From positions 143,966,001 to 144,030,000 of the forward strand of contig CM059431.1 of assembly GCA_030390025.1 (NCBI GenBank): a stretch of DNA of 64,000 nucleotides. Direction: 5' to 3'. Under the pieces are notes generated by a model. The model was given only the letters and a program-made list of their open reading frames with translations, had not been told where the DNA came from and ran no database searches. Below are positions 8,077 through 60,852 of the stretch, piece by piece. Within the stretch, counting starts at the first letter, position 1; each line of letters starts with the position of its first letter. This DNA comes from Squalus acanthias (lineage: Eukaryota). The position numbers and the translations under genes were made by a program.

Positions 8077-8250
8077 ATTCAAGAAGGAGTTATATACATT
8101 TCCTAAGGCTAAAGGGATCAAGGGATATGGGGAGAAAACAGGGACAGCGTACTGAATTTGGATGATCAGCCATGGACTCATTAAATGGCGGAACAGGCTC
8201 GCGGGGCCGAATTGCCTACTACTGCTCCTATCTTCTATGTTTCTATGTTT
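8077..8250 (+). mobile_element. 3' end of the CR1 that starts at 1395
   Basis: FKKELYTFPKAKGIKGYGEKTGTAY* followed by the CR1 3'UTR and tail. Confidence 0.88.
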
Positions 8251-10490
8251 CAATATAAAACGCCATACACATCTCGCAGGATCCTGAAACAATGTGAAAT
8301 CCCATCCACACCTGGCATGTTCCTGATACACTGTGCAACCCCATACACACATGACAGCATCCTGATACACTGTGAAACCCCATACACAGTAATCAGGATC
8401 CTGTAACCCTGTCAAACCGCATACACAGCTGGCAGGATCGTGATACACTGTGATACCCCATACACACCTGGCTGGTTCATGATACACTGTGAAACGCCAT
8501 ACACAGCTGGCAGGTTCCTGATACACTGTGATACCCCATAAACATCTGGCAGGATCCTGATACACTGAAAACCCAAACACACCTGGCATGATTCCGATAC
8601 ACTATGCAATCCCATACACAACTGCAGATTCCTGATGCACTGTGAAACCCCATATACACCTGGCTGGTTCATGATACAATTTGAAACCCGATATACACCT
8701 GGCAGGATCCTGATAAACTGTGAAACCCCATACACACCTGGCATGATTCCGAAACACTATGCAATCCCATACACAATTGCAGATTCCTGATGCACTGTAC
8801 TACCCCATACAGATCTGGCAGGATCCCGATAGACTGTGAGACCACATAACAGCTGGCAGTATCCTGATACACTGAAACACCAAACACACCTGGCATGATC
8901 TCGATACACTGTGAAACTCCATACACATCTGGCAGGATCCTGAAAACATGTGAAACCCCAAATACACCTTGCAGGTTCCTGATACACTGTGAAACCCTAT
9001 AAACACCAGGCAGGTTCTTGATACACTGAAACCTCATATACACCTGGCATGATCCCGATTCACTGTGGAACTCCATACACACCTGACAGGATCCTGATAC
9101 ACTGAAACCCCATAAACACCTGGCATGATACAGATACACTATGCAATCCCATACACAACTGCAAGATTCCTGATGCAGTGTGAAAGCCCATACACACCTG
9201 GCAGGTTCCTAATACAATTTGAGACACCATATGCACCTGGCAGGAACCTGATACAATGTGAAACCCCATACACAGCTGGCAGATTCCTGATACACTGTCA
9301 AACCCCATACACAGCTGGCAGGATTCTGATACACTGTAAAAGCTAATACTCACCTGGCAGGTTCGTGATACACATTGAAACCCGATACACATCTGGCAGG
9401 ATCCTGATGCACTGTGAAACCCCATACACATCTGGCAGGATCCTGATGCATTGTGAAATCCGATAAACACCTGGCAGTTTCCAGGTACACTGTGAAACCC
9501 CATACCGATCTGTCAGAAACCTGATACACTATAAAATCCCATACACAACTAGAAGATTCCTGATGCACTGCGAAACCCCATACACACCTGGCAGAATCCC
9601 GATACACTGTGAAACCCCATTCACACCTGGATAGTTCCTGATACAGTGTGAAACCCCATATACACCAGGCAGTTTCTTGATACACTGAAACCCCATATAC
9701 AACTTGCAGGATCCTGATACACTGTGAAACCCCATAACACCTGGCAGGATCCTGATACACTGAAACCCCATGCACACCTAGCATGATCCCGATCAATGGT
9801 GAAACTCCGTACAAACCTGGCAGGATCCTGATACACTGTGAAGTCCCATACATAAATGTAATTTCCTAATACATTGTGAATCCCAATACACACATGGCAG
9901 AATTCCGATACACTGTGAAACCCCATACAAACCTTGCAGTTTCCTGATACAATGTGAAACCCAAATACCCCAGGTATGTTCTTGATACACTGAAACCCCA
10001 TACACAACTGGCAGGATCCTCATACACTGTGAAACTCCATACGCACCTTGCAGGTTCCTGATACACTGTGAAACCCCATAACACCTTGCAGGATCCTGAT
10101 AAACTGAAATTCCATACACACCTGGCAGAATCCTGATACACTGTGGAACTCCATACACACTGGCAGCATTCTAATTCACTGTGAAACCCCATACCCACCT
10201 GGCAGCTTTCTGATACACTGTGAAACACCATACACACTTGGCCGAATCCTGATATACTTTGAAAACTCATACAAACCTGGAAGGACCCTGATACATTGTG
10301 AAAACCCACACACATCCGGTCGGATCCTGATACACAGTGAAACCCCATACACACCAGGCAGGTTCCTTATATACTGTGAATCTCCATATACACCTGGGAG
10401 TACCTGATAGATTGTGAAACCCCATACACACCTGGCAGGATCCTGATACACTGTGAAACACCATACACACCTGGCAGGATCACGAAACAG
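8251..10490. repeat. 39-bp satellite, same family as 88-1372
   Basis: Tandem GATCCTGATACACTGTGAAACCCCATACACACCTGGCAG units. Confidence 0.95.
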
Positions 10491-11589
10491 CGTCAAAGGA
10501 GCGTTGAAAGCTGCCCACAAAGATTTGACCATATTTAGACCACAGACTTGCTGCCATCAGACGTCTTTTCCAGCGCAGCGCCCTCTACAGTGGATCTGTG
10601 GACTGTGAGCAGGAGAAGGAATCAGCGAGGCTCTTCAACCAGTCTCGTGGAAGGACCCTCACTGAGAGGCGCAGATTCAAAACCAGAAATTATAAAACAG
10701 AAACTATAAATTACATTTATATCATGTTGATGACATGAAATAACGTTGGGAAATATATGTGTGATTAAGGAAGAGAGATAAAAGAGACAAACAGAAATAG
10801 TAAATATAAATATTTATTTTTTAAATCTGCAACATTAATTTTCTTCTGTGGGTATGAGACTCCACACATTTATAATTATTTTTTCAGTGCCAGAGAGATA
10901 GTTCAGCAGCAATTATCACTTATTTGGCCGTTTAAAAACTCACTTAATCCTGAATGCATTAGCCCTAACTCTTTCAGCAGTCTTTAGTGTGGAACTACTG
11001 TGTAAGTACCCCAAGCTTACGCCGCTGCAGTGATTTCAATGCAACTCTATCGGCGAGGATTGCAACAGCGCCTCTTCTGGAAGAAAAGGGTCTCTCTGAC
11101 AGCATCTTCTGCATTTCCACGTTTAACTGCGCATGTGCGGACACAAGATGTTGCTGTCAATTTTGCCCAGCAATAACGGCGAGCGCTGATAGTCTCGCCA
11201 TTATTATTAAAGCCAAATCCGAGCCAATGTTCAGGCTGACTAGAAGGTTATTGTCTAGCTTCCCAATTGCCGTGAAAGGGCGAACATTATTCTTCTCAAA
11301 GAATAGTCCTTAAATTCGCGTGTCTTTTTAGACCCAATGTAATGACTAACGGAACATATGTTGGTTCCCAAACCTGCAGTATAGAAAACTAAGACCAAAA
11401 TTAAACAACGGTGTGTAATTATTGATAGAACATTTCAAATGAACTGTAAATGTTTTATGCTCTAATATTACACTGAGTGAAGTGGGCTATAGTTCTATTT
11501 CTGTTTCTAATCGGTGATATGACAGGATTGTTATAAAACTCATTCAATGACATGATGTGTAAAACTGCTGAAACTTTTTTTCGCAATTT

Positions 11590-25088: not shown

Positions 25089-25259
25089 GCTGGATAATAA
25101 CGGTCTCACAGATTCTTGTGCCAAGGATCTCTCCTCCGCTCTCAGTACAAACCGGTCACTGAAGGTTCTGGATCTGAATAATAATAACCTGGGTGATTCA
25201 GGAGGGAAAGTGCTGTTTGCGGCTCTGAGGAACCCGGATTGTAAAATACAGAAACTGCG
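25089..25259 (+). CDS. NLR LRR exon (171 nt, RI-type repeat pair)
   Basis: Bounded by cccag| and |gtaagc; reads LDNNGLTDSCAKDLSSALSTNRSLKVLDLNNNNLGDSGGKVLFAALRNPDCKIQKL. Confidence 0.93.
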
Positions 25260-25402
25260 GTAAGCACCAGACTGTGTGAGATTGTGTTTATAATAACTGG
25301 ATGTCGAACACTGTATTTTATTATTTGTGTCAGCAATAGTGTTATTAATAAATACTCGAGATTTACCCTGATTTTTGTTACTTTTCTCTCTCTGATCCAC
25401 AG

Positions 25403-25570
25403 TCTATGGGCTGTCGGTCTCACAGATTCTTGTGCCGGGGATCTCGCCTCCGCTCTCAGCACAAACCGATCACTGACGGATCTGTACCTGAACTCAAACT
25501 CCTTCACAGACCGATCTATCCCCGCTCTCTGCCGCCTAATACTGACCTGCACGAGTATGGAGCGGATCGT
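25403..25570 (+). CDS. NLR LRR exon (168 nt)
   Basis: Bounded by cacag| and |gtgagg; reads LWAVGLTDSCAGDLASALSTNRSLTDLYLNSNSFTDRSIPALCRLILTCTSMERI. Confidence 0.9.
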
Positions 25571-25743
25571 GTGAGGGTTTTGTGTTAATGTTTAATGTAA
25601 GAAATAAAATATAAATGCGATTCAGTCACTTTTATGCGTAATATTTATATGTAATTATTATTGAAATATTAACCCCAGTCTGCCTGTTATTTACACTGTT
25701 GTTCAATCTGTTTATTTCCTGTTTAATCTTTAATGCATTTCAG

Positions 25744-25832: not shown

Positions 25833-26199
25833 ACATTTCAATTGATGACCATCACTGCTCTCATTATATGACGATGTTTGGCCGATTTTCTGCGCCTCTC
25901 CTTTAAGCTGCAGAGATCCGGGTTTAAATCCTATCGGCCCCTTTAAGGGTTTCCAGCTCGAGCTGAGCAAGTGTCATCTCTCATTGTGAGGTCAGAGGCC
26001 CAGCCACAGGGTCCCGAGACTCAGCCGCCCGGCCCCACAGCGCTGCTTCTGCAGGATATCCGGGGCTGAATGTTCCCCAATGGGGCACTGGGGAAATGCA
26101 CAGACAGGAAGGGACCGGTGTAGGACTCAGACTGGGCTGCAGTGGGACACTGACAATTGCACTCAATATTCCTGTGTGTCTCTCCCAAAGAGGATTCGA

Positions 26200-27990
26200 T
26201 CTCTGTAACCACTGTCCCTGTGTACAGTGTTTGTCTCTCCCAGTGAGGTGTCGCACTCTGTAACAAGTCTCCCTGTGTACAGTGTGTGTCTCTCCCAGTG
26301 AGAAGTCTGACTCTGTAACAAGTGTCCCTGTGTGCAGTGTGTGTCTCTCCCAGTGAGGAGTCAGACTTTGTAACAAGTGTCCCTGTGTACAGTGTGTGTC
26401 TGTGCCGGAGAGGAGTCGGACTCTGTAACAAGAGTCATAGAGTCATAGTTATAACTGCACAAAAGGAGGCCAATCGGCCCATCGAGTCAGTGCCGGCTCT
26501 CTGGAGAGCAATCCAGTCAGATCCTTTCCCCGCTCTATCCCCGTAGTCCTGCAAGTTAATTTCCTTTAAGTGCCTATCCAGTCTCCCTTTGAAAACATTG
26601 AGTGTGTCTGCTTTCACCACTTCCGTCGGCAGCGAATTCCAGATCCTCACCACTCGCAGCGTAAAAAGATTTTTCTTACATCCCCCCTGTACCTTTTGCC
26701 AAACCTTAAATCTGTGCCCCCAAGTCCTTGTACCACCAACTAGTTGGAACAGCTGTTCCCCGTTTAGCATATCAAATCCCGTCATAATCTTATACATCTC
26801 TATCAAATCACCCCTCAACCTCCTTTGCTCTAATGAGAACAAATCCAGCTTCTCCAACCTATTCTAAGATCCCACATCCCGAAACCATTCTGATAAATCT
26901 CCTCTGCACCCTCTCAAGGGCCATCACATCCTTCCTAAAATGTGCTGACAAGAAGTGTCCCTGTGTACAGTGTGTGTTTCTCCCAGTGAGGAGTCGGACT
27001 CTGTAGCAAGTGTCCCTGTGTACAGTGTGTGTTTCTCCCAGTGAGGAGTCGGACTCTGTAACAAGTGTCCCTGTGTACAGTGTGTGTTCCCAGTGAGGAG
27101 TCGGACTCTGTAACAAGTGTCCCTGTGTACAGTGTGTGTCTCTCCCAGTGAGGAGTCAGACTCTGTAACAAGTGTCCCTGTGTACAGTGTGTGTCTCTCC
27201 CAGTGAGGAGTCAGACTCTGTAACAAGTCTCCCTGTGTACAGTGTGTGTCTCTCCCAGTGAGGAGTCAGACTCTGTAACAAGTCTCCCTGTGTACAGTGT
27301 GTGTCTCTCCCAGTGAGGAGTCAGACTGTATAACAAGTGTCCCTGTGTACAGTATGTGTCTCCCAGTGAGGCGTCAGACTCTGTAACAAGTGTCCCTGTG
27401 TACAGTGTGTGTCTCTCCCAGTGAGGAGTCAGACTCTGTAACAAGTCTCCCTGTGTACAGTGTGTGTCTCTCCCAGTGAGGAGTCAGACTGTGTAACAAG
27501 TGTCCCTGTGTACAGTGTGTGTCTCCCAGTGAGGAGTCAGACTCTGTAACAAGTGTCCCTGTGTACAGTGTGTATCTCTCCCAGTGAGGAGTCAGACTCT
27601 GTAACAAGTGTCCCTGTGTACAGTGTGTGTCTCTCCCATGAGGAGTCAGACTCTGTAACAAGTGTCCCTGTGTACAGTGTGTGTCTCTCCCATGAGGAGT
27701 CAGACTCTGTAACAAGTGTCCCTGTGTACAGTTTGTCTCTCCCATTGAGGAGTCACACTCTGTAACAAGTGTCCCTGTGTACAGTGATTGTCTCTCCCAG
27801 TGAGGAGTCAGACTCTGTAACAAGTGTCCCTGTGTACAGTGTGTATCTCTCCCAGTGAGAAGTCTGACTCTGTAACAAGTGTCCCTGTGAACAGTGTGTC
27901 TCTCCCAGTGAGGAGTCGGACTCTGTAACAAGTGACCCTTTGTACAGTGAGTGTCTCTCCCAGTGAGGAGTCGGACTCTGTAACAAGTGA
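26200..27990. repeat. 55-bp satellite (CTCTGTAACAAGTGTCCCTGTGTACAGTGTGTGTCTCTCCCAGTGAGGAGTCAGA)n
   Basis: Tandem unit read directly; interrupted at ~26432-26950. Confidence 0.95.
26432..26950 (-). mobile_element. CR1 3' fragment inserted in the 55-bp satellite
   Basis: [19 protein letters not shown] and RVVRIWNSLP, a GACTCTAT tail, and ACAAGA at both junctions. Confidence 0.88.
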
Positions 27991-28009
27991 CCCGACAACC
28001 CTCCGAGTA

Positions 28010-28302
28010 CTCTCCACTGCTCCGACCTCTTGCGCATCCTCGATTTTCGTTGCTCCACATTGGCGACATGACTTCAGCTGCCAAGGCCCTAAACTCTGGA
28101 ATTCCCTCCACAAACGTCGTCACAGCTCGACCTCTCTTTCCTCGCCTTTATACGCTTCTTAAATCCTACTTCTTTTACCAAGAATTTGATCATCTCTCCT
28201 AAAATATCTTTACGTGGCTCAGTGTCAAATTTTGACTGAGAATTGCCTCGTGACGTTTCACTACATTAAAGTCGCTATATAAATGCAAGTTATTGTTGTT
28301 GT
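28010..28302 (+). mobile_element. L2-like LINE 3' end
   Basis: FSCQGPKLWNSL..LKSYFF followed by the tail GCTATATAAATGCAAGTTATTGTTGTTG. Confidence 0.6.
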
Positions 28303-29240: not shown

Positions 29241-29819
29241 GATGAAGGAGCGATCCAATAAGTCCCTCTCACTCCCCGTAGCCCTGCAAACTGTGTCTTT
29301 ACAAGTATACAGTACAATCTGCATCCACCATCCTTTCAGGCAGTGCATTCCAGATCAGAACAACTCGCTGCATAAAACATCCTCCTCATCTCTGCTCTGG
29401 TTCTTTTGGCAATTATTTTAAACCTTTGTCTTTTGGTTAACCACCCTCCTGCCCCGGAAAGAGTTTCTCCCTATTTACTCCATCAGAAACTATCAAATGA
29501 CGTCCATGTCCCCTCAATGTTGTCGCATCGCTCCGAAACACAAGCATTATTTTGAAATGTCCATCCACGGGTTCACTTTTCCGACTTAATTTCCTCTCAG
29601 TCCCTGTTCATCACGCACCAAGTTAACATGTTGTTGTAACATTGCAGGCCGGGCTACTTTAACCCAGGCTTTAAACTCTTTAAAACACAAGGACCACAAT
29701 CGAACAGGAACGTGTTAACCCGACAACAAAACCAGGGCTAAGAGAGAAAATTTAACCCAGGTAATAAACAAACAGAATTCGTGTGGGCCCCATTGTGTAC
29801 AACGTGAGAAGAAGGCCGC

Positions 29820-31430
29820 GTTCAGTCCCCCCTGGAAAATGCCTCGGTCAGTCCCCTCTGGAGGAGGTCTCGGTCAGTCCTCTGTGGAGAGGGTCTCGGG
29901 CAGTTCGCTCTGGAGGAAGTCTCAGTCAGTCTACTCTGGATGAGGTCTCGGTCAGTCTCCACTGGAGGAGGCCTCGGTCAGTCCTTCTGGATGAGGTCTC
30001 GGTCAGTCTCCTCTGGAGTAGGTCTCGGTCAGTCCCCTCTGGAGGAGGTTTCGGTCAGTCTCCTCTGGAGGAGGTCTCGGTCAGTCTCCTCTGGAGGAGG
30101 TCTCGGTCATTCTCCTCTGGAGGAGGTCTCGGTCAGTCTCCTCTGGAGGAGGTCTCGGTCATTCTCCTCTGGAGGAGGTCTCGGGCAGTCTCTGGAGGAG
30201 GTCTCGGTCAGTCTCTGGAGGAGGTCTCGGTCAGTCTCCTCTGGAGGAGGTCTCGGTCAGACTCCTCTGGAGGAGGTCTCGGTCAGTCTCTGGAGCAGGT
30301 CTCGGTCAGTACTCTCTAGAGGAGGCCTCGGTCAGTCCCCTCTGGAGGAGGTCTCGGTCAGTCCCCTCTGGAGGAGGTCTCGGTCAGTCTCCTCTGGAGA
30401 AGGTCTCGGTCAGTCTCCTCTGGAGGAGGTCTCGGTCAGTCTCTGGAGGAGGTCTCGGTCAGTCTCCTCCGGAGGAGGTCTCGGTCAGTCTCCTCTGGAG
30501 GAGGTATCGGTCAGTCTCTGGAGGAGGTCTCGGTCAGTCTCCTCTGGAGGAGGTCTCGGTCAGTCCTCTCTGGAGGAGGCCTCGGTCAGTCCCCTCTGGA
30601 GGTGTTCTCGGTCAGTCTCCTCTGGAGGAGGTCCCGGTCAGTCTCTGGAGGAGGTCTCGGTCAGTCTCTGGAGGAGGTCTCGGTCATTCCCTTCTGGAGG
30701 AGGTCTCGGTCAGTCTCTGGAGGAGGTCTCGGTCGGTCCCTTCTGGAAGAGGGTCAGTCTCCTCTGGAGGAGGTCTCGGTCAGTCCCCTCTGGAGGAGGT
30801 CTCGGTCAGTCTCCTCTGGAGGAATCTCGGTCAGTCCCCTCTGGAGGAGGTCTCGTGCAATCCAGTCTTCAGGCGTTCACGGTCAATATTCTCTGGAGGA
30901 GGTCTCGATCAGTCTCCTCAGATTAAGGCCTCGGTCACTCCACTCTGCAGGAGACACGCTCAGTCCCTTCTTGAGGAGGTCTCGGTCAGTCCCCTCTGGA
31001 GGAGGCCTCGGTTAGTCCCCTCTGGAGGAGGTCTCGGTCAGTCTGCTCTGGAGGAGGCCTCGGTCAGTCCCCTCTGGAGTAGGTCTCGGTCAGTCCCCTC
31101 TGGAGTAGGTCTCGGTCAGTCCCCTCTGGAGGAGGTCTCGGTCAGTCCCCACTGCAGGAGGTCTCGGTCAGTCCTCTCTGGAGGAGGTCTCGGTCAATCC
31201 CCAGTTGAAGCAGTCTCGGTCAGTCCACTCTGGGAGAGGTCCCGTTCAATCCCCTCTCTAGGAGGTCTCGGTCCGTCCCCGCTGGAGGAGGCCTCGGTCA
31301 GTCTCCACTGGAGAAGATCTCGGTCAATCCCCAGTTGAAGCAGTCGCGTTCAGTCTTCTCTGGAGGAGGTCTCAGTCAGTCCCCATTGGAGGAGGTCTCG
31401 GTCACTCTCCTCTGGAGGAGATCTCGGTCA
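29820..31430. repeat. 26-bp satellite (GGTCTCGGTCAGTCTCCTCTGGAGGA)n with 23-bp variants
   Basis: Tandem unit read directly. Confidence 0.95.
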
Positions 31431-31434
31431 GAAC

Positions 31435-32425
31435 TGTAAGTCGTTCTGATTGTCTGAGAGTTTATAAAGTTCAGACCCGTGCAACAAACAACACAAAACC
31501 CAATGAATCTGTGAAACTTCTTTTACTTAAAATGCAACAAGATGTTACAAGTAATTTCCAGAATACAATCTCTACTCAATGCATGTACTTATCACAAACA
31601 AGCATCTAAAATCATTGACTTTAAGCTCAGGTGATTATAAGTAAAACCACATACAGACTATTCACCAGATGAGAGGTCAATTCAACGATGACAGACGTAT
31701 GACTAACTGTAACTGGCACCTGACCAGGTCACCATCGCCTATAGCCCCGAATGTCAGTGTCCAACAACAATTATACCCCAAAACTTGGCAACTCGCCCAC
31801 AGCATTCATGTTTCTAACATTATGGCATAATCGTCATTAACTGTTTCTCAGACCCTCTTATCATTAGTTCATTGAGCAGCTGTGTGTCTCAAGTCTACGT
31901 GCATTCCATAGTCTGAAGAGGTTTCATTATTGCACTGATTTCACAGTCAGTAGCGGGTTCCCACAGAACCTCAATTAGCTTGTTTTCCATATCTGTTGAA
32001 AGGCAATTGGCAGCTTTTTTAGCTTGCACGTCAAACTGTTTATTTTGCAAAGTTCTCACAGCAAACAATCTTTGTCCGCGCGAAGCATGATAGTAAAATT
32101 TGATCAACTGTTACAGCAAATACTGTGTTCTACAGTGTCCACCCTCAAATAGTGTGTTCTACAGTGTTCACCCTCAAATAGTGTGTTCCACAGTGTCCAC
32201 CCTCAAATAGTGTGTTTTACAGTGTCCACCCTCAAATAGTGTGTTGTACAGTGTCCACCCTCAAATAGTGTGTTGCACAGTGTCCACCCTCAAATAGTGT
32301 GTTCTACAATGTCCACCCTCAAATAGTGTGTACTACAGTGTCCACCCTCAAATAGTGTGTTCTACAGTGTCCACCCTCAAATAGTGTGTTGTACAGTGTC
32401 CGCCCTGAAATAGTGTGTTAACACA
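31435..32425 (-). repeat. 3' LTR (outer end ..TTACA firm, inner boundary inferred)
   Basis: 31435-31815 aligns by eye with 41951-42335. The inner end is placed at TGTGTTAACACA just after the env stop. Confidence 0.7.
32125..32420. repeat. 29-bp tandem repeat (GTGTTCTACAGTGTCCACCCTCAAATAGT, about 10 copies) in the putative U3
   Basis: Read directly. Confidence 0.92.
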
Positions 32426-32469
32426 TTGTCCAACCGCAAGTGGCTGTGCATCCAATTCAAGGGTCACAG

Positions 32470-35400
32470 GCACTTACAACTTGTAGACGCTAAGTTCTTC
32501 CTTCGGCCTCTAATGTAACAGCTTGACCAATGCTTGCTGGTTGCGCCGTCGGTTGACTCGGCAAGTTATCGTTAGTAAATATAACTTGGAAAACAGTGAC
32601 AGGACCGGACAAAGCCAACATGGATTTACAAAAGGTAAATCATGCTTGACTAATCTACTGGACTTTTTTGTGGATGTAACTGGTAGAATAGATAAGGGAG
32701 AACCAGTTGACGTGGTGTATTTGGACTTTCAGAAGGCTTTCGATAAGGTCCCGCATCAGAGATTAGCGTGAAAATTTAAAGCACATGCGATTGGGGGCAA
32801 GGTACTGACTTAGATAGAGAACTGGTTGGCAGACAGGAAGCAAAGATTTGGAATAAATGGGTCTTTTTCCGAGCGGCAGGCAGTGACTAGTGGGGTACCG
32901 CAGGGATCGGTGCTAGAACCCCAGCTATTCACAATATATATTAATGATCTGGAAGAGGGAACTAGATTTAATATCTCCAAGTTTGCAGACGATTCAAAGC
33001 TGGGTGGGCGTGTGTGCTGTGAGGAGGATGCAGAGAATCTCCAGTATGATTTGGACAGGTTGGGTGATTGGGCAGATGCATGGCAGATGCTAAATTAATG
33101 TGGATAAATGCGAGGTTATCAACTTTGGTAGCAAAAACAGGAAGGCAGATTATTATCTGAACGGCAATAGATTGGGAGAAGGAGAAGTGCAACGAGACCT
33201 GGGTGTCCTTGTGCACCAGTCGCTGAAGATAAGCATGCAGGTGCAGCAGGCGGTTAAGAAGGCAAATAGTATGTTGGCCTTCATAGCGAGAGGATTCAAA
33301 TACAGGAGCAAGAATGTCTTGCTGTAACTTTACAGGGCCTTGGTGAGACCACACCTTGAATATTGTGTGCAGTTTTGGTCGCCTTATCTGAAGAAGGATG
33401 TTCTTGCCATGGAGGGAGTGCAGCGAAGATTCACCAGACTGATACCTGGGATGGCAGGAATGACGTATGAAGAGAGATTGGGTCGATTGGGCTTATATTC
33501 GCTAGAGTTTAGCAGAATGAGAGGAGATCTCATTGAAACTTATAAAATTCTAACAGGACTAGACAGACTAAATGCCGAGGGAGTCCAGAACCAGGTGTCA
33601 CAGTCTAAGGATAAGGGCTAAGCCATTTAGGATTGAGCTGAGGAGGAATTTCTTCACCCAGAGAGTGGTGAACCTGTGGAATTCTGTACCACAGAAGGCA
33701 GTTGAGTCCAATTCGTTAAATATATTCAAGAAGGAGATAGATATATTTCTTAAGGCTAAAGGGATCAAGGGATATGGGGAGAAAGCAGGGACAGGGTACT
33801 GAATTTGGATGATCAGCCATGATCTCATTAAATGGTGGAGCTGGCTCGAGGGGCCGAATGGCCTACTCCTGCTCCTCCCTTCTATGTTTCTATGTTTCTA
33901 TAACAAAATCACCAACTGAACAATGAACAAATCGTGGGAGATAATTCTTATCCAGGGATGAACCTCAATACTCATACCGATATCCCACCAGAATGAACCG
34001 TTCCCAATCTTAGATATTTCTTTGCGTAATTTCCGGTTTATCTGGGCCAGCGTATAAAAGTACCTTTGAGACTAACTAACTCGGTGCATTAACTCTACCA
34101 GTTGTTCTGGTAGAGGTGGAATGTCATAGCCGAATCGAGTCACGTACTGGTGTAATTGCTCTTTTAATTTATCTTCTACAGCGATATCTACTTGCCTATG
34201 CGAATAAATACTTAATAAATCCCGCGCCCCAAGTCTTACAGGTTTAACTGGGGTAAAGCAAAAAGTTCCCGCCACAATGGGACAAGTCAGGTTGTTACCA
34301 TACGGGTATTCCCGGTGTATGGTCGTGACACAATACTCACCTTTCCCTCGGTACCCAGATTGTACGGGGAAAAGCTTTCCTGCTACTACTTTCATGATGC
34401 AGTTTCACTCTATCCCATCCCAATCGAAACCGGACAAAGGGGCTGCATGTTCTACCACGTCATAAGGGCAGATGAATGTGTCCCGAGCTTGAGCGCACCC
34501 GGTAAGATGTGGGGCCACCCATGTGGTCCCATCCCCCCGGGTCACATACTGCGGGGGTTTGTCATACCTTACTAAGTGGTCTCCCTAGCGTACTCCTATA
34601 TTCTCCACACGGAATAGAGGATTCGGGGTCGCCTTTTCGCGCAGGATAGGATAATCCAACACCATCCCTAATAAGGTGATGTAATTCTGTTCCTGCAAAT
34701 GGCATTCATGTTTCACCGGGTATACCTGTACCAACCCAGTGACTTTACACATGTTGATAGTAAATTGATAAGTGGACATTGCCCTCAGGTGTCGATCAGT
34801 CACCCACAATGGGAGTTCCCCTCAGCAATGCTCTGCAGGTTATCACGGGCTTGTTCCACTAACCAGGATCCATACATTACACAAACATCATTTCCTGCGG
34901 CCTCACTAGAGGCACTCAGATTCTCCTTTAAAATTTGGTTTATCCTTTTAGCGTAAGATTCTAAATAGTTAACCATGTCCTGCAGATCAATGTATCATAA
35001 TTTGGTCCTCCTTCAATTCCTCTTGTTCCAGATCATTCATTTCATTCAGAATTTCCTTTACACGTTTTCTAACTGCCTTTACGGATTGATCCAAATTAGC
35101 AAAATCAAGACTATTAACGAGGGTGTTTCCGGTATTAAAAACAGTGGCTGCATCATTTATCAGACCTCGTCGTGTTCTGATATGGTCCCGTTTAACCCCC
35201 TAACCGACGTTGTTTCCTTCAGTGATCTCAGTATTTCCCCAAAGTTATTGTTAAATACATTACCATCTCCTGATCCCCTGCGATATAATGGGTCGAATTC
35301 CGATTCCCCCAAATTTGTGCTGGCTCTTTCCAAAAATCCTTTTTATTAAATCCCATACCATTCTCCCATATAACCGCGCTGTTTCTGGTTTCCACCAGTC

Positions 35401-36266
35401 CGGTATTCCCACCTCGGTCACATTTAATATCACAGGCACCACCTGGTGATGCACATCATGGTCCAATATCCGAGTTGGGACTCCCACAAACCCATGTGTC
35501 GGCCCCGGAGTGTGTTTGGGAGACAACCCGGGTTTCTCTTGTTCTTCCCGCCATTGTGTTTTATTTGCGGGGGGGGGGGGGCGGAGTGGGGCGGAGTTTA
35601 GGACGGACTTTCACTTTGAATTCTCTGGTATCTGTGGTTCCGTTTACACATTCCGATTCTTCATCAGTAACACACATTTCATGGCCCAGCCCTCCCTCCT
35701 TTTCACCCAGCATCCATTGATAAGGGGGGTCATTTTCTGCACCGGACACAAACGCAGGAGAAAGGCTGCAAACCGGGAATTCGGACCCAAAATTGACCCA
35801 ATTCTTCAGTGGGCCTGGTCGAGTGTTTACACATCCATATATACCCTCAGGCTCCTGCCTCCACCGTGGCCAACACAACATGGTTTCCCCATGGTCTTCC
35901 CATTGAGTTGGGCTCCCATTATATCCCCAAGGTCTCCTATCTGGCGGTAACTAGTATTGTCACCCACCTTTGCCTGAATGAACCATACACGCGGCTGATT
36001 CACAGTCTCACTCTTACACTTTATACATGTTCCCCTCCCTTCTTGGACCGTGTATGTGGTTACCCGGACTATTCCTGAACAACTTGTGTCGCACGGACCC
36101 TTGATAGATCGGAGGGTAACCTCACGGGCGATACCTTGGGGTGGAGTTACGGGGCAATGGTAATCTGACTGTCGTAACTTGAATCGCTGGATGCTTCCCT
36201 ATGAGTTCCTGCTGCCCTTTCGAGATGGAGCGCTATGTCACACAGCAACCAAAATATCCTCCCCAT
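32470..36266 (-). pseudogene. env: env-like glycoprotein gene, frameshifted and split by a CR1
   Basis: Starts at ATG MGRIFWLLC (36266). Contains VVPVILNVT, RTRR|GLINDAATVFNTGNTLVNSLDF (~35170), a heptad helix, Cys-rich YCVTT..CPI..FCFTP, the [21 protein letters not shown] and the basic tail RVNRRR. Confidence 0.85.
32586..33898 (+). mobile_element. 5'-truncated CR1 inserted into the env TM-coding segment
   Basis: CR1 RT and 3' tail, with TATAAC at 32580-32585 and 33899-33904. Confidence 0.93.
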
Positions 36267-36403: not shown

Positions 36404-39400
36404 TCATTGCCTCAGATTGTAACCACCATCCTGTACCTGGGGAGGCAGCTCGTCACACGGAGGTGCCTCAGGTGGGGGCGCTGCATTAGGCACCCCTTCT
36501 CCATCATCCCATTGGAGCGGCTGAGTCAGTCTCACCCTGCTCATGATCGTGGCTTGCTGTCTTCTTGACCTGCTTGTGGGCTGAAAAAGCTTCATCTGGT
36601 TAATGTGAAACCATTTGATTTTCTGAGGTAACTGAACCGCGTATACCATAGGACAAGCTTTGTAACAATGTTATACGGTCCCTTGTAGAGGCGTTCGAAA
36701 ACTCCCACCCTTGCATAGTTTCATACCATTACCTGGCTCTCTACTTCCCACTCCTGGGGTTTACTCGGAGTCAGGTGTAATCTGTTGCGTTGGTTTGTCT
36801 TCCCAATGTTGTGGGCGGCTCTCAAGTTCAGTTCTTTCAAAGTTCCCCACAGGTCGCTCAGGAATTTGTCCCGAGTGACTTCTTTCATTTGTTTATCAGT
36901 CAGAGTGGGAGCCAACAGATGTGTGGGGGTTCGCATGGGTCTCCCTTTTGCAAATTCATGAGGGGAGTGAACCGCTTCTTTGAATTTGTTACTATGGATC
37001 CCCATAATGATTAGGGGAAGTACCTCATCCCACTTAGTGTGCTGTTCGTTTAATTCCTTTCACAGGGCCAACTTCAACGTGCGGTTCATTCTTTCCACAA
37101 TCCCTGATGACTGCGGGTTGTGGGTTACGTGCTATTTCCCTTCAATTGCAAACAATTTCAGGGTGGCTTGCATCACTTGCCCTGTAAAATGACTCTCTTG
37201 GTCTGACTCTACCAATCGAGGGAGCCCCCATTTAGAAAATATCTCCCTAACTAGGGTCTTGGCCGTCCACAATGCTGCGGCCCACTTGCACGGGAAAGCT
37301 TCAACCCACTTGGTAAAATTCTCCACTTGGACTAGACAATATTTATTGTCCTTCTTAGTGTTGGGCAGGGGTCCGATGAAATCTATCTGGACACACTGCC
37401 CCGGTCCCTCTGGTCGATGGGAGTTTCCGAGGGCAGCCTTTCTTTTATGTGGGTCAGGATTGTTAGCAGCACACACTAAACAGGTTTTACACTAATCTTC
37501 TATGTCTTTCCTCAGATGAGGCAACCACCCTACCTCCTCGACCCGCTTCCAGGTTGTTTCGTGTCCGGTGTGTCCAGCCCCCAGTCCTCCGTGAGCGAGC
37601 TGCATGAATTCCTCCCTGTATCCCTCGGGCACAATCCACTTCTCTCCTTTGAACAACATACCTTACCTGATGTTTACATCTTTGGCCCCATAAGGCCCTT
37701 CTACAATCTGACCTGCTTCTCTTTCCTTGAGGACAGATTTTAGCACTACATCTGTCAGCTGTATTGTTTTGATATCCGGGGGAAGCGGAATAGTAACAGC
37801 CGGAGTGATGACTGCTCCCACTCCCGATTGATACGGGTCCCACGGGACGCCGATCTCCGCTCCCACCTTAGCAAGCTCGTCTGCTTTCCTATTTCCCTCC
37901 CCTCTGGGTTCTGCTTTTAAGTGGGCTTTGACCTTATGGATATAGTATTACTCGTCTCCCCCTCTTATGACTTCCGCTATGTTTGCCAGTATTGGTGCGG
38001 TAACCAGTGACTTGCCATCTGCTGATTTAAAACCTCTTCGAGCCCAAATCGCCAAATATTCTGTGCAAGAATCACATGTAAACATAGAGTCAGAGCAGAT
38101 CGTAGAGGGCGGGGTGCAATAGGTGGGATGTGTTACCACATAAGTTCCAGCTGCTAACTCTGTCTGCTGAGCACTGAGAGTGGTGGGTAGCTTAATCGCC
38201 ACTTCCATTCCTTTCTGTGGGTCGTAAATTCCACATCCTGTTTTACGTTCCCCCTTTTCCACAAAACTAGACCCATCCACATATATGTCTCTCCCTTCAG
38301 GGTGGATACCAGGTTTGAATCTGCCTTCTATTTCCCACACCCCCTCGACTGTACAAGTGTGGGGTTCCCCCATATATATAAGGCTGGGTGCTAATTTCAG
38401 ATCGTTTATCAGTTTCACTTTCAGGTTCATCCCTTCTAACTGTAGGGTCCATGTAGCGACCCGAGTGCATGGCACTGTTCCCTGCTTAATTCGGCCTTCT
38501 ATCATGAGGCGGGTTGGCGTGTGGTGGGTGAGGAGAGTGATGGGCTGGGTCCCCGGGAATACGGCAAAATGCTTCACTGCCCAGAATGTGGACAGCAAGT
38601 GCCGCTCACAGGTAGAGTATCCCTTCTCCACCTCAGATAGCACTTTGGTGACATAAGCAACTGGTCTCAGACTCCCATTCACTTCCTGCATTAAAACTGC
38701 ACTCAGATTGACGTCTGTTGCCGCTAATTCCAAAAAGAAGTAATCTTAGGGTCTCCGGCCCCAATGCTGGGGCTGTGTGTAGGTCCTTTTTCAAATTTAC
38801 AAAAGCTTCCTCACAGCGCTCATCCCAATCCCATTTCCACTCCCTTTCTGAGTAATCTCAGCAAAGGAGCTGCCGTCGCTGCCTAATTCTCAATACATTC
38901 TCTACAGTACCCTGTCAGACCCATGAATGATCTGAGAGCAGGTATTGAACCCGGGCGGTGAAATTCCTGGACAGTTTGGCGCTTTGCTTCGTCTATCGCG
39001 CGCTCCCCTGGTAGAATTGTCAATCTAAGAAACTGAATCTCTCTTTGCCCTATCTGTGCCTTCTTGGAATTTACCTTGAAACCTACGGCTGCAAGCGATT
39101 CTAACACTTCCTGCAGTAGTTGCTCATGTCCTCTTCGCTATCTGAGAACAGCAGTAAATCATCTACATCCTGCACAAGCTGGCCTGGCTGACTGAATTCT
39201 GATAGGCTGTTAGCCATACACTGGTGGACAATAGACGGGCTATTGTGGAATCCCTGTGGCAAACAAGTCCACGCATACTGCTGACATTTAAAGGTAAAAA
39301 CAAACTTATACTGGTCCTGCGGGTGTGAGGGAATTGACCAGAATCCATTATATATGTCCAATACTAGGAACACAGGGACAGAGCTGGGAATGTTGCCGAT

Positions 39401-40228
39401 TAAATCAATCACAGCTGCTCCTGTGGGAGCACAAGCAGGGATGGTTTTATTCAAGACTCTGTAATCTACAGTCATCCGCCAGGAATTGTCTGGCTTCATT
39501 ACCGGCCAAACAGGAGAGTTAACATGCATCACAATAGGTCTCAGGACCCCTAGTTCTACTAAGGACGCAACAGCTTTTTCTCAGTCTCTCTCTCTGCTTC
39601 CTTGGGGAACGTGCACTGTTTCTGGGGCCGGGACATTGGCTCACCCTCCACACCCACCTCACATCCTGTCCCCCTACCACAATCATGTCTGTGGGTAGCA
39701 CAAGCACCCTTGATATTCTGCACTGCGGTTTGATACCTCTCGGGCACCCTGGCCGTTAGTGTTTCTAAGTCATCGGGTCCCGCAGGTGTTACCACCCACG
39801 CTTCTCCATGTCTCGGGGGTATAACGATTACTTCTTCACCACAGTCCACTCCGCCCCACAAACAGTTATTATCCATATCCACTGTCACATTGTGAGCCAA
39901 CATCCAGTCAGAGCCCAGCACTCCCATTCCTGGCTGATCCCATTTCATTAGTAAACATCTCCACTTAGTTTGTAGGGGTCCGACTGTGAAGATTAAAGGT
40001 TCTGAGACCGCCCCAGCTGCTGAGTTACTCGTGAAACCTCCTAAAACATAGGGGGCGCCACTTGACCAGGGAGACGACATCGGGGATGGAGAGTGGATCT
40101 ACCTTGCTTGACGCTCCAGTGTCTATCAGATAGTCCCCTCTCTCGCCCTCAATCAGGATGTCTACACACGGTCTTCCCCAATCACCGTACCTGAGTGGAC
40201 ACAGGTACTCGGGCTGGGCGCGGCCCCG
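36404..40228 (-). pseudogene. pol: pol: protease, RT, tether (degenerate RNase H), RNase H, integrase; several frameshifts and stops
   Basis: PR YLIDTGAS (~40120). RT NSPVWPVMKPDNSWRMTVDYR, LDIYNGFWSIP, WTCLPQGFHNSP and QDVDD (YVDD mutated). Tether LRPVAYVTKVL..E. RNase H YVDGSS, AQQTEL, SDS, HKVKAH..GNRKADELAK. IN HHCC, QIDFIGPLP, SDQESHF, PQSSGIVERMN and GPY. Confidence 0.93.
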
Positions 40229-41901
40229 TCATGCTCGGGTCTCCCCGCGATCCTCCCCATGGGCCGCGTGGACCTTTCCTTGAGATGGTTCAAGCTCCTT
40301 CATCTGATTAGCTACATATCTAATGAAATCCTGATAACTGGGGGCGCTGGGCTGAGATTCTGCCTCTCGTGGGGCAGCCTCAACCATTTCTTTCCCAGGT
40401 GATCTTTTACAGTTCCGGGCATAATGTCCCACCACCCCACAGGCAGAGCACTTCTTTCCCTGACTCCCCTCTTGTAGCCACTTCCGATGTGCCCCCCCCC
40501 CCTTCATTTCATAGACTGTGCCTTTTGACTTGCTTATTACCCCGGAGTTATTTTTATCGACCTGGCGCGCCTCGAAACGCAGGGGCATTTTCCGCAGCAC
40601 CCTGACCTCAGTATTGGTGATATCTCCTGGGTCAAACTCCGCCATTGCGGCTTGTAAATAGGGCAGATTGTGGGAGATCAGTGTCCGCAACCAATGGTTC
40701 CGCGCTTCTCCGTCGAGGTCTGCTCTCCTTACCGGCCCTCCCATGGCGCATTATAGGTCGGCCATAACCTGTCAGCAAAAGCTGGGTGTTCGTTTGGGCC
40801 TTGATCCACGTCCGCCACGGCCTTCAAATGATCCCCTTTACATTGTCCCAAAACCTGGGCAAACCTCAAATTTAGCGCATCGTCAGTGCCCTCTCCCCTC
40901 TTATTCTCTGGTGGAAGTCCAGCAAAGACACTGGAGCTCAGGGTAAACAGCAGCAAGCGCTTCTTTACCTCCTCAACCAGGTGATTTAAAGCGGCCCTCT
41001 CTTCTCCCTCCAGATAATGTCCTTGGGGGTCCCCTCCCATTGCCAGCTTGTTCATATCACTGGACATTTTCCTTAACTCCTCAGTATTATACGGGTCCAC
41101 AAGCTCCCTCTCTAGCGCCCCCAACGCTCCTTCACCCGCCCCCATGGCTGGTGCCTGGGACCGTTTGTGACACATCAGAGCCATAGGTGGGGGTCTGACT
41201 CCCTCCGGTGGGCTATTTCCAGGTTGTGGGCCCCCATCCGGGTGATTTTTATCAACCCCTTTGCTATCCTGCAGATCTCCTCCAAACACAGGAGTCCTGG
41301 CCCACACAATACACCTCTGGACCTTCAACTTTTCCCCCAGCTCCCTAATCAATTCCGTACATTCAGTGTGATCCCCGGCAGCACTCCGGTCCTCCAGAGC
41401 CTGTCTCTGAGTGACCCTGAATGCAGCCTTCAGATCCTCATCAGCTTTCGCTGCTCGTTCAGCCCGATCTCTCTGGTTAGCCGCCTCCTCTGACCAAACA
41501 GCACACTGATTCTGATTATTTACACACCGGCTCTCAAGGTACTGCTCTTTATTACACCACCTCTCCTTTACCTTTTTAAGCTGTCCCCTCAGCCTCTTCT
41601 TAATTTCTCTTTCGTCGTCTAATTGCGATCGAAGCCGTTTTACAACCGCTTCCTTATCACTGCCATCCTTTGCCATCTCTTCCATCTCCTTATGCATCTG
41701 AGCCATTTTACACACATCATTCTTAAACTGCCTCTGGTCTGCCATTAATAAGACGGCCTTTACCATCCTTGGCCGGCAGTTGGACCCTTGGCTCCACTGT
41801 TCAGCCTCAGCCACTGGGTCAGCACCATCAATAATGACCCGTACCCACCGCTCCCTGAGGGGTAACTTCGCTCTCACATATTTCCTGACTAACTCATCCA
41901 T
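40229..41901 (-). pseudogene. gag: gag with a long coiled coil and one CCHC knuckle; frameshift near 40740
   Basis: Starts MDELVRKY just after the PBS, has a charged heptad region, and contains CSACGVVGHYARNC. Confidence 0.88.
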
Positions 41902-41927: not shown

Positions 41928-41945
41928 GTCCCTGTTCGGGTACCA
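41928..41945 (-). promoter_or_regulatory. Primer-binding site for tRNA-Lys(UUU)
   Basis: TGGTACCCGAACAGGGAC matches the canonical Lys3 PBS TGGCGCCCGAACAGGGAC at 16/18 positions, 5 nt from the LTR end. Confidence 0.9.
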
Positions 41946-41950: not shown

Positions 41951-42335
41951 TGTAAGATGTTCTGATTGTCTGAGAGTTTATAGAGTTCAGACTCGGGGAA
42001 CAGACAACACAAAACCCAATGAATCTGTGAAACTTCGTTTACTTAAAAATTAACAAAAGGTTACAAGTAAATCCCAGAATACAAACTGCACTGAATTCAT
42101 GACCGTATCACAAGCAAGCATCTAAAATCATTGACTTTAAGCTCAGGTGATTATAAGTAAAACTACATACATACTGTTCACCAGATGAGAGGTCAATTCA
42201 ACGATGACAGACGTATGACTAACTGTAACTGGCACTTGACCAGGCCACCATCGACTATAGCCGCGAATCTCAGTGTCCAATAACACTTATAACCCAAAAC
42301 TGGGCAACTGGCCCCCAGCATTCATGTCCCAAACT
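41951..42335 (-). repeat. 5' LTR remnant (R/U5 side; upstream part apparently missing or divergent)
   Basis: Direct repeat of 31435-31815 that ends ..CTTACA next to the PBS. Confidence 0.85.
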
Positions 42336-42649
42336 GTGGGGAATGTTGTTTTCCTCTCTCTCTCTCTCTCTCTGTTTTGACGCTCAGCTCTCCAAGGCAA
42401 GACTCCAAGGACTGCAAAGAGTCATTGTTTTTCATACCTGCAGGGCTGTTGAGGTTCTCACAGAATTTTCAAGAACTTATCTTCTGACGGAAATGTACCA
42501 GCTCATTATAAGTTTTGCAAATGTTTTTAACCAAAAGTCTCTTGCCCTCAAAGCTTTTCGGTGCATTTGGTCACTTATAGATTCTGTCAAATGGAGATCC
42601 AGAAAGTTTACCAGGACAGATCTATTTTTGGGCCTCAACTATTCACCGC

Positions 42650-43678: not shown

Positions 43679-43755
43679 GCCTACTCCTGTTACTGTAATC
43701 ACTGTTAAAGAATCAGAGCACGAATGTGGAGATGAAAATCGCGATTAAAAAGCAG

Positions 43756-43828
43756 CGCCCGAATAGGGACTTGAACCCTAGACCCTCAGATTAAAAGTTT
43801 GATGCTCTACCGACTGAGCTATCCGGGA
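43756..43828 (-). tRNA. tRNA-Lys(UUU) gene or recent pseudogene
   Basis: TCCCGGATAGCTCAGTCGGTAGAGCATCAAACTTTTAATCTGAGGGTCTAGGGTTCAAGTCCCTATTCGGGCG has 4 differences from vertebrate tRNA-Lys3. A and B boxes are intact, with a T5 terminator at 43747-43751. Confidence 0.88.
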
Positions 43829-57329: not shown

Positions 57330-57862
57330 AACTTGTACGTGCATCGGCCCCATGCTTTAGCTGAATTCACTGTGCTTGATGACCGACTATACAGTGAGCT
57401 TATCACTGTATCTAACACCTGCAATGGGAGTTTCAGATGGGACAGTGTAGAGGGAGCTTTGCTCTGTATCGGAACCGTGCTGTTCCTGAGCTTGGAGAGT
57501 TTTATGAGATAGTCTAGAGGGAGCTTTACTCTGTATCTAGCCCGTATTGTATCTAACCTGGGTGTGTTTGATGGAAAAATGCAGAAAGAGCTTTACTCTC
57601 TATTTAACCCATACTGTACCTAACCTGGGAGTGTTTGATGGGACAATTTAGACGGAACATTACTCAGTATATATCTCGTGCTTGACTTGAAGTGGGATTG
57701 TTTTATGGGCGCTTTAAATATGTTTTACAGTGTATGTAAGCCATGCTGTTCCTGACCTGGGAGTGTTTGATGGGACGGTGTAGCGGTTGATTAAATCTTC
57801 ATGTCTGTCGTGTCATACGTGAACTGCAAGTGTTTGATGGGACAGTGTAGACGGAGTTTTAA
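57330..57862. repeat. Degenerate 67-bp satellite
   Basis: Unit of type CTGTATCTAACCCGTGCTGTACCTGCCCTGGGAGTGTTTGATGGGACAGTGTAGAGGGAGCTTTACT. Confidence 0.8.
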
Positions 57863-58594
57863 CTATTATTGCCCATGACTTCCCCTCCAATTATTGCTCA
57901 AATGACCCCACCAATTGATAGCCCTGATGATCCCTACAATGTGCCTCTGGCGCCCATTCCTGTTACAGGAAACAGAGTAGTTGCAGAACACAGAGGAGGT
58001 TGTTACATCTTCATCCAAGCACCATTACCTCAAACTGCATTTCACTGTCGAGACAGGAGGGAGACGCAGTGCTTGATATTATGTGAGGGAGTGTTAGGGG
58101 TGCATAAATCAAAAGGTGGAAATTTGGGCCATTGAATAGTGGGAACTCATATTTGGAGGATGGGACAGAGAATTCATAAGGGGCAATTTTGCGCGGTTTT
58201 GCTCCATGCCTGGGGTCTCAGTACGTGGGAAGGAGTCGGATCAGGACTGAATGTACAACATGTGTTCATCCCCAATGAGACTGCACACCAGGAGCAGAGC
58301 ATGATCATGTGACCCTGTGACAGCTCTAAAGCGCCGAGCTCCGGCTGCTTTGCGACATTGTTACTGGCTGCTGTATGATTGGCTCCTGCCTCCTTTGTGA
58401 TGTCACCTGGAGACAGGTTTCGGCCCCTGGTTACGCCCCATCAGTGGTGCGTCACTGTGGACGGAGCTGGATTTGGCAGCAGATATTGTGAGAGAATAAA
58501 GACCCAATAAATAGGGGCAAGGAGAGAAAAGAACAATTTAATATTAAAGTAAGGAATTCAACCAATTGTCATTAATTGCAAATATATATAATTA

Positions 58595-58700
58595 AATCTG
58601 ATGAAAGGTCATCGACCTGAAACGTTAACTCTCTTTCTCTCTCTCCACGGATGCTGCCTGGCCTGCTGAGTTTTTCCAGCGTTTTCTGTTGTTATTTCAA
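58595..58700 (+). mobile_element. Short Penelope pseudo-LTR/SINE-like fragment
   Basis: CTGATGAAAGGTCATCGACCTGAAACGTTAAC..GATGCTGCCTGGCCTGCTGAG. Confidence 0.75.
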
Positions 58701-59149
58701 ATTAAATATATTGATTGTTGCAAAATTAGTTCGATTGTTTGCCGATTATAGTTTATAGAATTAACATGAATCATTTTTAAAATTGGTAGTTTCTTGGAGT
58801 CTGCAGTAACTGAGGACGGTGGAGAGAGAGCGGAGTCTAATCATCACCACATTAACTGGGACCGGAGAAATGCCACTGGCTTCACAGATCAGATCTGGAA
58901 GTACCAGGACCTCCGTGTCAAAGACAGGAAAAAACAGGAAGCTTCATCAATGATTGGAAGGATGAGGAACTTTCCCAAGAATCGAATCAGTCCAGGATTT
59001 TGCCGAGGTGAGAGTCGAACCCGGCATCAGCAGCTGGTCAACATTTGCCGTAAGGCTCGGCCTTTGATGCGGTAATTTGACTAGAGATTCACTCGTGTGT
59101 GAACCTTTTCTATACCTCAAGTGGGAGTGCTTCAAAATTACATGTAGAA

Positions 59150-59675
59150 GGGATTTTATCCTGTAACCGTACCGTGTATTACCTGAGTTGATTTGTTTCA
59201 TTGGATAGTGTCAGAGGAGGTTTACACTGCATTGAGCACATGCTGTAACTGAGTTGACTGTGCTTGATGAACCAAAATACAGCGAGATCTACACTTTATT
59301 GAGCCCCTGCTGTACCTGCCCTGTTCGTCAGTGACGGGACAATAGAAATGAAGCTTTACTCTGTATCTAACCCGTCCTGTACCTGCTCTGGAAGTGTTTG
59401 ATGGGGAAATGTAGAGTGAACTTTACTCTGTATCTAACCCTTGCTGTACTTGCCATTGGAGTGCTTGCTGGGAGAGTGTAGATTAAGCTTTACTCTGTAT
59501 CTAACACGTGCTGTATCTGCCATGGGAGTGTTTGATGGGAATGTGTAGAGTGAACTTTACTCTGTATCTAACCCGTCCTGTACCTGCCATTGGAGTGCTT
59601 GAGGGGAGAGTGTAGATTAAGCTTTACTCTGTATCTAACCCGTGCTGTACCTGCCCTGGGAGAGTTTGATGTATA
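59150..59675. repeat. 67-bp satellite, same family as 57330-57862
   Basis: CTGTATCTAA recurs at 59361, 59428, 59495 and onward. Confidence 0.88.
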
Positions 59676-59680
59676 GGGGG

Positions 59681-60852
59681 TGGTAATGGGGTCAGCCTTC
59701 ACTTTCTGACTCAGTGATCGGTTCGAATCGCTCCCACACACCTCTGGTTCCTAGACTTTGGACTTATTTAGGGGTTGCGAACAAAAGTGCAGTAGACAAC
59801 AGGTACTGATGAAAGAATTTTTACTTTATTAAAAGAAAAAGGTAGCAAACTTAAAACACACTTAATACTTAAACACAGATTGGGGAGCACACGGTACAGA
59901 CGAGGGAGAATGACAATATACCAAACAAAAACCTTATCCCTCCCAAAGATCCCACTATATAGCTAGGTTTTTGGTTTCAGGAGATCAGGGATGCTCACCA
60001 ACGAATCCTTGGCAGGATTTTAGAGTCTTTTGTTTAAAAGATTTCGTAAGGCCCTTGTTGCTGCGAGGCGTCCGATGGTCACTGAGGCAGTCGCTCTGGT
60101 TTCTTCTTGTGTGCTGGTCTGTTTGCTGGCCTTCCTCCTCGTGGCTTGTAGTGGTTTTTGCTGGAGCAGGGAGAGAGCTGTGTCAGCGTAGTCAGCGAGT
60201 CCAAAAGAGAAATAATTTTTGGGACAGACTTTCAATTATACTGTCTTTTTATCGCTCCCAAAAACCCCATACTAAAACGTTTCCTTTAGGTTGCAAATGA
60301 GCCTTGCAATGTCCATTGTCTAGTTTTGGCGGGCTTGCCAGTTCCGATGGCTTCAGCTCAGTGTTAAACAATTCTTGATCGTTTTCCGATTTAAACACAG
60401 CCTTATCTACGCGCCAAATCTCAACCCTATTGTCCTAGGGATTTTGGCGGGCTTTTAAATCTGTCCTGTGGATACCTGGTTGATTGGCTTTTGATGAAGT
60501 ACTAAATATTTTATTGATTTCAGGCTTCTGGTATCCTGTTTGGGCCTGGGAATTTTAAAAGGGGGTCTTGGACTATTCATATTTCGATGTGTGTGTGAGG
60601 CTTTGGGTTTGTCTCTTCCTCCTTAGTAGGATTGCAGTGTAAACAATTCCCAGACAGCTTGAGTGGGCCCCAATACCCAAAGCTGTCCACTGCCTGGCCA
60701 CGCCCCTCCGCAGCCTGTCTTGTGTCTGTGAAAGGTGTCTCTCCCAACAGTAAAATTCAAAAGTCATTTTTCTCAGGGCTTTTCTTCCCTGATCTTTAAA
60801 ATGGCCAAGACTGAGGTTTTTACATCAAATCGCTTCACTTAGGTCCCGTCAT
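59681..60852 (-). mobile_element. Possible solo LTR
   Basis: A ~1.17 kb non-coding block with TGACGGGACC.. / ..GACCCCATTACCA ends and a minus-strand AATAAA near 59826. No partner copy in the window. Confidence 0.3.

Follow-up and report, generated by a model that had tools for sequence, protein, structure and literature searches.

The minus strand of a 64,000-nucleotide stretch of the Squalus acanthias genome (GenBank assembly GCA_030390025.1, contig CM059431.1, positions 143,966,001 to 144,030,000; hereafter the window, whose own numbering is used throughout) carries a decayed endogenous retrovirus (ERV) whose envelope gene, env, is the subject of this study. We consider it quite probable that this is a dead env copy of a multi-copy ERV with a pol gene likely related to that of snakehead retrovirus (SnRV), and that its envelope protein (Env) had the predicted class Ib F fold and a likely immunoglobulin (Ig)-like head at its N-terminus. 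The provirus begins with a 5' long terminal repeat (LTR; 41951..42615), which ends in TTACA, has its first few bases replaced and matches both LTRs of other copies, followed by a primer binding site for tRNA-Lys(UUU) (41928..41945; two mismatches to the form in another copy). The gag gene (40229..41901, with one frame break) encodes a coiled-coil N-terminal part and one CCHC zinc knuckle (zf-CCHC, E 2e-4). Its TGA stop (40226-40231, minus strand; 1019-1024 in locus L055) is in frame with pro-pol in all three copies compared, and the triplet 3' of it is CGG in the window and CTA in a related family, a context that we take to be a read-through signal. Next come a broken protease region with a DTGAS motif (39559..40228; 57% to the intact Pol P0001 over the RH part), the reverse transcriptase (RT) core (39101..39580; RVT_1, E 4e-20; SnRV-like motif LPQGFHNSP), a tether (degenerate RNase H) plus RNase H (37948..38745; PF17917, E 2.5e-16, and PF00075, E 1.3e-9), and a broken integrase (36500..37660; rve, E 1.2e-10).

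Downstream of the integrase, env likely starts at 36266 with a probable signal peptide (MGRIFWLLCDIALHLERAAG, 36207..36266), placed by the start of the unbroken Env of a younger family. A likely Ig-like domain follows (35831..36063, split across two frames), and then an F2-like segment (35350..35508) with a long beta strand and a helix resembling heptad repeat C (HRC), where model residues 45-119 align to F2 of paramyxovirus and pneumovirus F. The furin-type site RTRR (35167..35178; R-x-K/R-R at the same place in homologues) precedes the fusion-peptide position (GLINDAATVFNTGNTLVNSLDF, 35101..35166), which is weakly hydrophobic (mean Kyte-Doolittle 0.40). Helices like heptad repeat A (HRA) and the domain III core occupy 34822..35094; they include the long amphipathic helix LDQSVKAV...EMNDLEQ (35094-35023), continued by MVNYLESYAKRINQIL (34976-34929) in another frame. 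The Cys-rich beta domains I and II of the F fold (34249..34821) contain GCAQARDTFICP (34500-34465), NCIMKV (34404), EYCVTT (34338), TCP (34287) and FCFTP (34263). A helix like heptad repeat B (HRB; 34113-34075) and a Trp-rich membrane-proximal segment with SFWWDIG (33996-33976) together span 33976..34113, and the shortened transmembrane (TM) helix (33904..33945) runs on into a short tail in other copies. Here it is cut by the 3' part of a CR1-like long interspersed nuclear element (LINE; 32584..33902, plus strand, with an (TTCTATGT)n tail), whose 3' end at 33902 has replaced the end of the TM segment, the cytoplasmic tail and the 3' LTR. Past the cleavage site the reading frame shifts twice (near 34993 and 34819) and is interrupted by in-frame stops at three places (near 34585, 34405 and 34072), with additional breaks 5' of that site, and the window locus itself is non-functional. 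All the motifs quoted in an earlier note on this DNA were recovered by six-frame translation on the minus strand, within the span 33905..35530 that it gave for env. The note's observation is thus confirmed, but it missed the N-terminal part of the gene: 35530 is approximately where the F2-like part starts, and env likely starts about 730 bases earlier.

On sequence grounds the env signal is more than chance, since it is 87.6% identical to an unbroken family copy (whose 586-codon frame spans the F2-like part through the TM helix), has 38 homologues, and varies among copies with a bias to third positions. The homologues (E<=0.001 among 1.84 billion representatives, in an unindexed protein search) come from sharks, rays and frogs, the nearest being from sharks and rays. 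A word-indexed protein search with a 409-aa natural open reading frame (ORF) gave no match at E<=0.001 among 4101 candidates, and blastn against phages gave none. Three database proteins (P0017, P0015 and P0029) are gene models that join Env pieces to host domains (F-box, cadherin and another), probably as annotation joins. An antisense ORF of 341 aa that lies close to env at six loci, considered as a candidate hidden gene, was identified as a LINE RT.

The fold of Env was approached through template-free models of two proteins, one from the unbroken copy of the family and one a homologue from Chiloscyllium. For both, the best matches among solved structures were paramyxovirus and pneumovirus F, in line with the reading of the earlier note, and ESM-Atlas features of Env indicated Fusion_gly (PF00523), with F0 as the first hit. 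In the models, domains I-III are nested, with a core beta sheet and a helical bundle; the furin site leads into the weakly hydrophobic fusion peptide and HRA, and HRB stands before the TM helix. The ectodomain left after cleavage, put by the note at roughly 400 residues, measures 407 aa in the unbroken family copy and 401-416 aa in six of the eight proteins measured (383 aa in one frog protein, 348 aa in a truncated shark model); gamma-type TM subunits have ectodomains of about 150-200 aa. Equally, neither CX6CC nor a pattern like the immunosuppressive domain occurs in the three minus frames, as the note had observed, and CX6CC appears only once among seven unbroken homologues, in a frog protein at its TM end; the gamma type is defined by an immunosuppressive domain followed by CX6CC in TM (PMC9967133). 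We therefore predict from the models that this Env family is a class Ib fusogen with the F fold shared by paramyxoviruses, pneumoviruses and foamy viruses. The note's label of a paramyxovirus- or pneumovirus-type protein holds as the name of a fold class only, because in the BFVD database baculovirus F and the glycoproteins of a lispivirus, a myriapod virus and a fish filovirus (a thamnovirus) score equal to or above paramyxovirus and pneumovirus F. Predicted Envs of the walleye retroviruses WDSV and WEHV-1 also match our models there (E 1.9e-10 to 2e-5). The note had further held that a best match to foamy Env would speak against an F-type protein; this is a false dichotomy, because foamy Env shares the F core (PMC11468914) and the walleye Envs match as well.

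The N-terminal part adds about 250 residues upstream of an uninterrupted F2. Other copies have its C...W...LCW...GxYxC pattern (36063-35831) in a single frame, which in one of them continues as far as the F2-like start, and the Ig motifs (B-strand Cys, C-strand Trp, F-strand GxYxC, about 60 residues apart) are kept in all eight aligned segments. A profile of eight natural segments retrieved the Ig superfamily first from the PDB (DIP-alpha, E 1.5e-5; MLCK Ig, 7.5e-4), while the best match of a profile of six segments from the window genome only was MLCK Ig at E 0.017. Pfam matches to Ig_3 and V-set fell below cut-off (Ig_3 E 0.049 in the sister family). Across copies the domain is 41-73% identical to one another's nearest reference and far more variable than the F core. 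Such variability would be expected if it bound a receptor, and we infer that the domain is likely a receptor-binding head.

The lineage of the element was assessed from its RT. In a hand count over two blocks (72 columns, fish foamy-like RTs, or FLERVs, left out), the window RT shared 49 residues with SnRV, 40 with HERV-L, 38 with Loki-Lch, 35 with simian foamy virus (SFV) and 32 with Loki-Str. A tree of 61 RT cores, built with a rough bootstrap from rows of at least 105 aligned residues and without named reference retroviruses such as SnRV, put the window within the retroviral clade (100/100), where its neighbours are frog and coelacanth Pols; epsilon-like fish Pols and gypsy elements fall elsewhere. 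Several of the nearest Pols carry the NCBI name NYNRIN-like only. In motif and hand count the nearest relative is SnRV, a member of Orthoretrovirinae (PMC12193657), and the pol gene likely belongs with it in clade Huo (class III). SnRV-related ERVs, which form clade Huo, are known from all major vertebrate groups (PMC6001957, PMC4422223, PMC12193657), including the elephant shark (PMC4422223).

Several results weigh against this overall picture. Neither PF00523 nor Baculo_F was matched by any of the family sequences (0/16 in one search and 0/11 in another), Fusion_gly had no match at its curated cut-off, and among 31 homologues there was one weak Baculo_F match (E 0.0011). The models had a pTM of 0.47-0.54, with pLDDT under 50 in the fusion-peptide/HRA region, TM-scores were 0.2-0.5, and in eight homologues too the peptide that follows cleavage has only weak hydrophobicity (0.16-0.87). 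The Env profile A3 did not match foamy Env, its best row being a weak HERV-K entry (E 0.027), and SnRV Env was not among the listed homologue or BFVD matches. For the head, the Ig-like segment is unfolded in the AlphaFold model of P0002, the sequence scores behind the Ig call are weak, and Atlas features of the N-terminal part point to fragments of retroviral surface subunits (SU; TLV_coat in 11-25% of members). The lack of a named reference retrovirus in the RT tree belongs on the same side. The SU-type features and the Ig lead need not conflict, because the C-terminal receptor-binding domain (RBD-C) of gamma-type Envs is a modified IgV domain (10.1101/2024.03.17.585361). A single-sequence search of the PDB gave nothing under E 0.38; SnRV Env and the HERV-K and HIV Env trimers lay outside the top-50 structure lists, an absence that excludes nothing.

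The best-surviving alternative, which we nevertheless regard as improbable, is a foamy-like element (clade Tu) with a plain foamy Env. Indeed, foamy Pol is the best PDB sequence match of the window RT (93.8 bits, versus 72.6 for MLV), foamy Env is the best PDB sequence match of the Env profile A1, and 4-bp target duplications flank two copies. However, the PDB holds no SnRV or ERV-L RT, so that foamy Pol ranks first by default, and SFV reached only 35/72 in the hand count from which FLERVs were left out. Foamy viruses make Pol from its own start and are not known to have a CCHC knuckle in Gag, whereas this gag has the knuckle and a stop in frame with pol. In the model nothing separates the F2-like strand from its helix and the extra domain lies upstream, whereas foamy Env has its receptor-binding domain (RBD) inserted within the F2 equivalent (PMC11468914), and the Env models match F better than foamy Env.

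Slightly less probable still is that the lineage of the window captured env from a paramyxovirus or pneumovirus. The top solved-structure matches are F proteins of Mononegavirales, and F0 is the first Atlas hit, but identity to paramyxovirus and pneumovirus F is 8-15% without a PF00523 match, other viral glycoproteins do equally well or better in BFVD, the only significant sequence match to a solved structure is another retroviral Env, and the homologues are spread over sharks, rays and frogs. The RT motifs made us abandon our initial idea of a lokiretrovirus, whose F-like Env would be the published one and whose shark host alone would be new; we now hold it very unlikely. In its favour, lokiretroviruses share the gag-pol-env layout, the tether with RNase H, an RXKR site and a PF00523-like Env (PMC7947760), and a PGP..G motif like the one here opens the F2-like part of Loki-Xtr Env. 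An F-like Env and a tether with RNase H occur in other retroviruses too, however, and are not diagnostic; a CGIN1-related integrase is a further mark of lokiretroviruses. Every one of the 24 Loki RTs in the published alignment has PFG (PFG[YL]xN) where the window has LPQGFHNSP, and hand identity is 32-38/72, against 49 for SnRV. The fusion peptide of Loki-Xtr Env is strongly hydrophobic and the protein has no N-terminal extension. Loki elements numbered zero in six chondrichthyan genomes (PMC7947760).

The family of the window is multi-copy. An env DNA search gave 419 first-look candidates, of which the 40 scored were 87-100% identical, an LTR search gave 1316 (40 scored, 84-100%), and a protein search revealed a sister family at about 45% identity. 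In a selection test on 23 de-duplicated copies of 38, omega was 0.91 for variants private to one copy, 0.60 for those in two copies and 0.30 for those in three or more; by this sequence measure, purifying selection acted on env during the spread of the family, and its copies decayed neutrally once inserted. Copies therefore likely multiplied by reinfection through Env, partly as passengers without RT. Among 22 mapped loci, eight (L046, L063, L065, L068, L070, L071, L072 and L074) are without RT and RNase H, with the layout LTR, gag stub, integrase remnant, env, LTR. Full pol was present in 4/22, all duplicates of the window insertion, and the remainder are partial or run beyond the range taken. 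Proliferating ERVs usually lose env, and these loci run opposite. That they lack RT but keep env suggests passengers that depended on full-length helpers for mobilisation. The two LTRs of a copy share 91.6-98.0% identity in eight copies, and 84.6% and 90.1% in two irregular ones. The LINE/env junction recurs identically in five other loci among the first 30 matches, so the window insertion was duplicated with its flanks; its copy would have decayed after insertion, lost its 3' end to the LINE and then been duplicated.

Two further families in the genome have the same Env type (L053 and L055; L044, L045 and L052): one is very young, its pol and env are unbroken, and its integrase is followed by a long acidic extension; the other has about 45% Env identity. 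The very young separate family has LTRs 99.9% identical, with Env 38% and RT 75% identical to the window family. In L048, a 24-bp tandem repeat has expanded within the LTRs (1824-2315 and 9012-9551), and a second LTR, primer binding site and gag start come after the copy. Elsewhere in the window, a tRNA-Lys(UUU) gene or pseudogene (43755-43828, minus strand), the type used by the primer binding site, lies 1.2 kb from the 5' LTR. An exon-like leucine-rich-repeat stretch (25245-25574, plus strand) resembles NLR-type repeats, with weak LRR_1/LRR_6 matches, and the provirus may perhaps lie inside a duplicated NLR gene cluster. Minisatellite arrays (units of 39, 55, 26, 29 and 67 bases) occupy 87-1377, 8180-10500, 26136-28047, 29741-31400, 32059-32493 and 57350-59738.

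If the predicted fold is correct, the precursor would consist of a signal peptide, the Ig-like head, a linker, the F2-like strand and helix, the furin site, an F1-like subunit and one TM anchor. By analogy with F and foamy Env (PMC11468914), it would form trimers and undergo cleavage at R-x-K/R-R. The head would engage a partner on the cell surface. Extension of the HRA helices into a long coiled coil would drive the N-terminal peptide into the target membrane, and the zippering back of HRB would bring about membrane fusion.

F-type Envs have been published for lokiretroviruses and foamy viruses (PMC7947760, PMC11468914) and for invertebrate errantiviruses (10.1101/2023.10.26.564294), and Viro3D expects more retroviral cases (PMC12583693). 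We found no published description, in the literature outside subscription journals, of an F-type Env or an Ig head on an SnRV-like ERV, and the accessible text of PMC9040795, PMC11521997, 10.1101/2021.11.05.467493, 10.1101/2024.07.05.601823 and PMC12690878 holds nothing on this Env type. Tentatively, and with much less assurance than for the locus itself, we propose that SnRV-related orthoretroviruses of sharks, rays and frogs are a third F-type Env branch with an Ig-like receptor-binding head, that the F-type fusogen is the ancestral retroviral Env, and that gamma- and beta-type TMs are later replacements. Of the four scenarios that Wang and Han list for how retroviruses came by env, they prefer independent gains (PMC7947760, PMC9040795). 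An SnRV-like Pol with an F-type Env, next to the Envs of foamy, Loki and walleye viruses, would favour a single ancient F-type Env in Retroviridae. It would suggest that this fusion machinery is older, and more widespread in retroviruses, than its two known lineages indicate. With its head before F2, this Env would join a receptor-binding module to the F core in a third way, next to those of foamy Env and the coronavirus spike, and the unbroken natural relatives in sharks and frogs make structural work possible.

Among known systems, the closest in predicted architecture are the paramyxovirus and pneumovirus F proteins (NDV 3maw, PIV5 2b9b, hMPV 7sem, RSV 8wsq, measles 9coh), with domains I-III, an F2-like strand and helix before the furin site, HRA and HRB, a cleaved ectodomain of about 400 residues and a single C-terminal anchor. 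The window family differs from them in sequence, in its weakly hydrophobic fusion peptide, in its N-terminal extension and in a provirus without a separate attachment protein. Foamy Env (PMC11468914; 8rm0, 8rm1, 8ozh) has its RBD between N-SU and C-SU and a membrane-spanning leader, whereas here the extra domain stands before the F2-like part and after a short likely signal peptide, and neither Pol nor Gag is foamy-like. Lokiretroviruses (Wang and Han 2020, PMC7947760) are likewise ERVs of aquatic vertebrates with an F-like Env, an RXKR site and a tether with RNase H, but differ in RT motifs in all 24 references and in the Loki-Xtr Env, and the text gives no report of them from cartilaginous fish. 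The Envs of the walleye epsilonretroviruses WDSV and WEHV-1, described only as neither gamma nor beta type (PMC9967133; 10.1101/2021.11.23.469661), match our models but are 1159-1317 residues long and accompany an epsilon-type Pol. The SnRV clade (clade Huo) has the nearest RT by hand count; its Envs are not described as F-type in the accessible text of PMC6001957, PMC4422223 and PMC12193657, and some SnRV-related class III ERVs pair their Pol with a gamma-type Env (10.1101/2021.11.23.469661).
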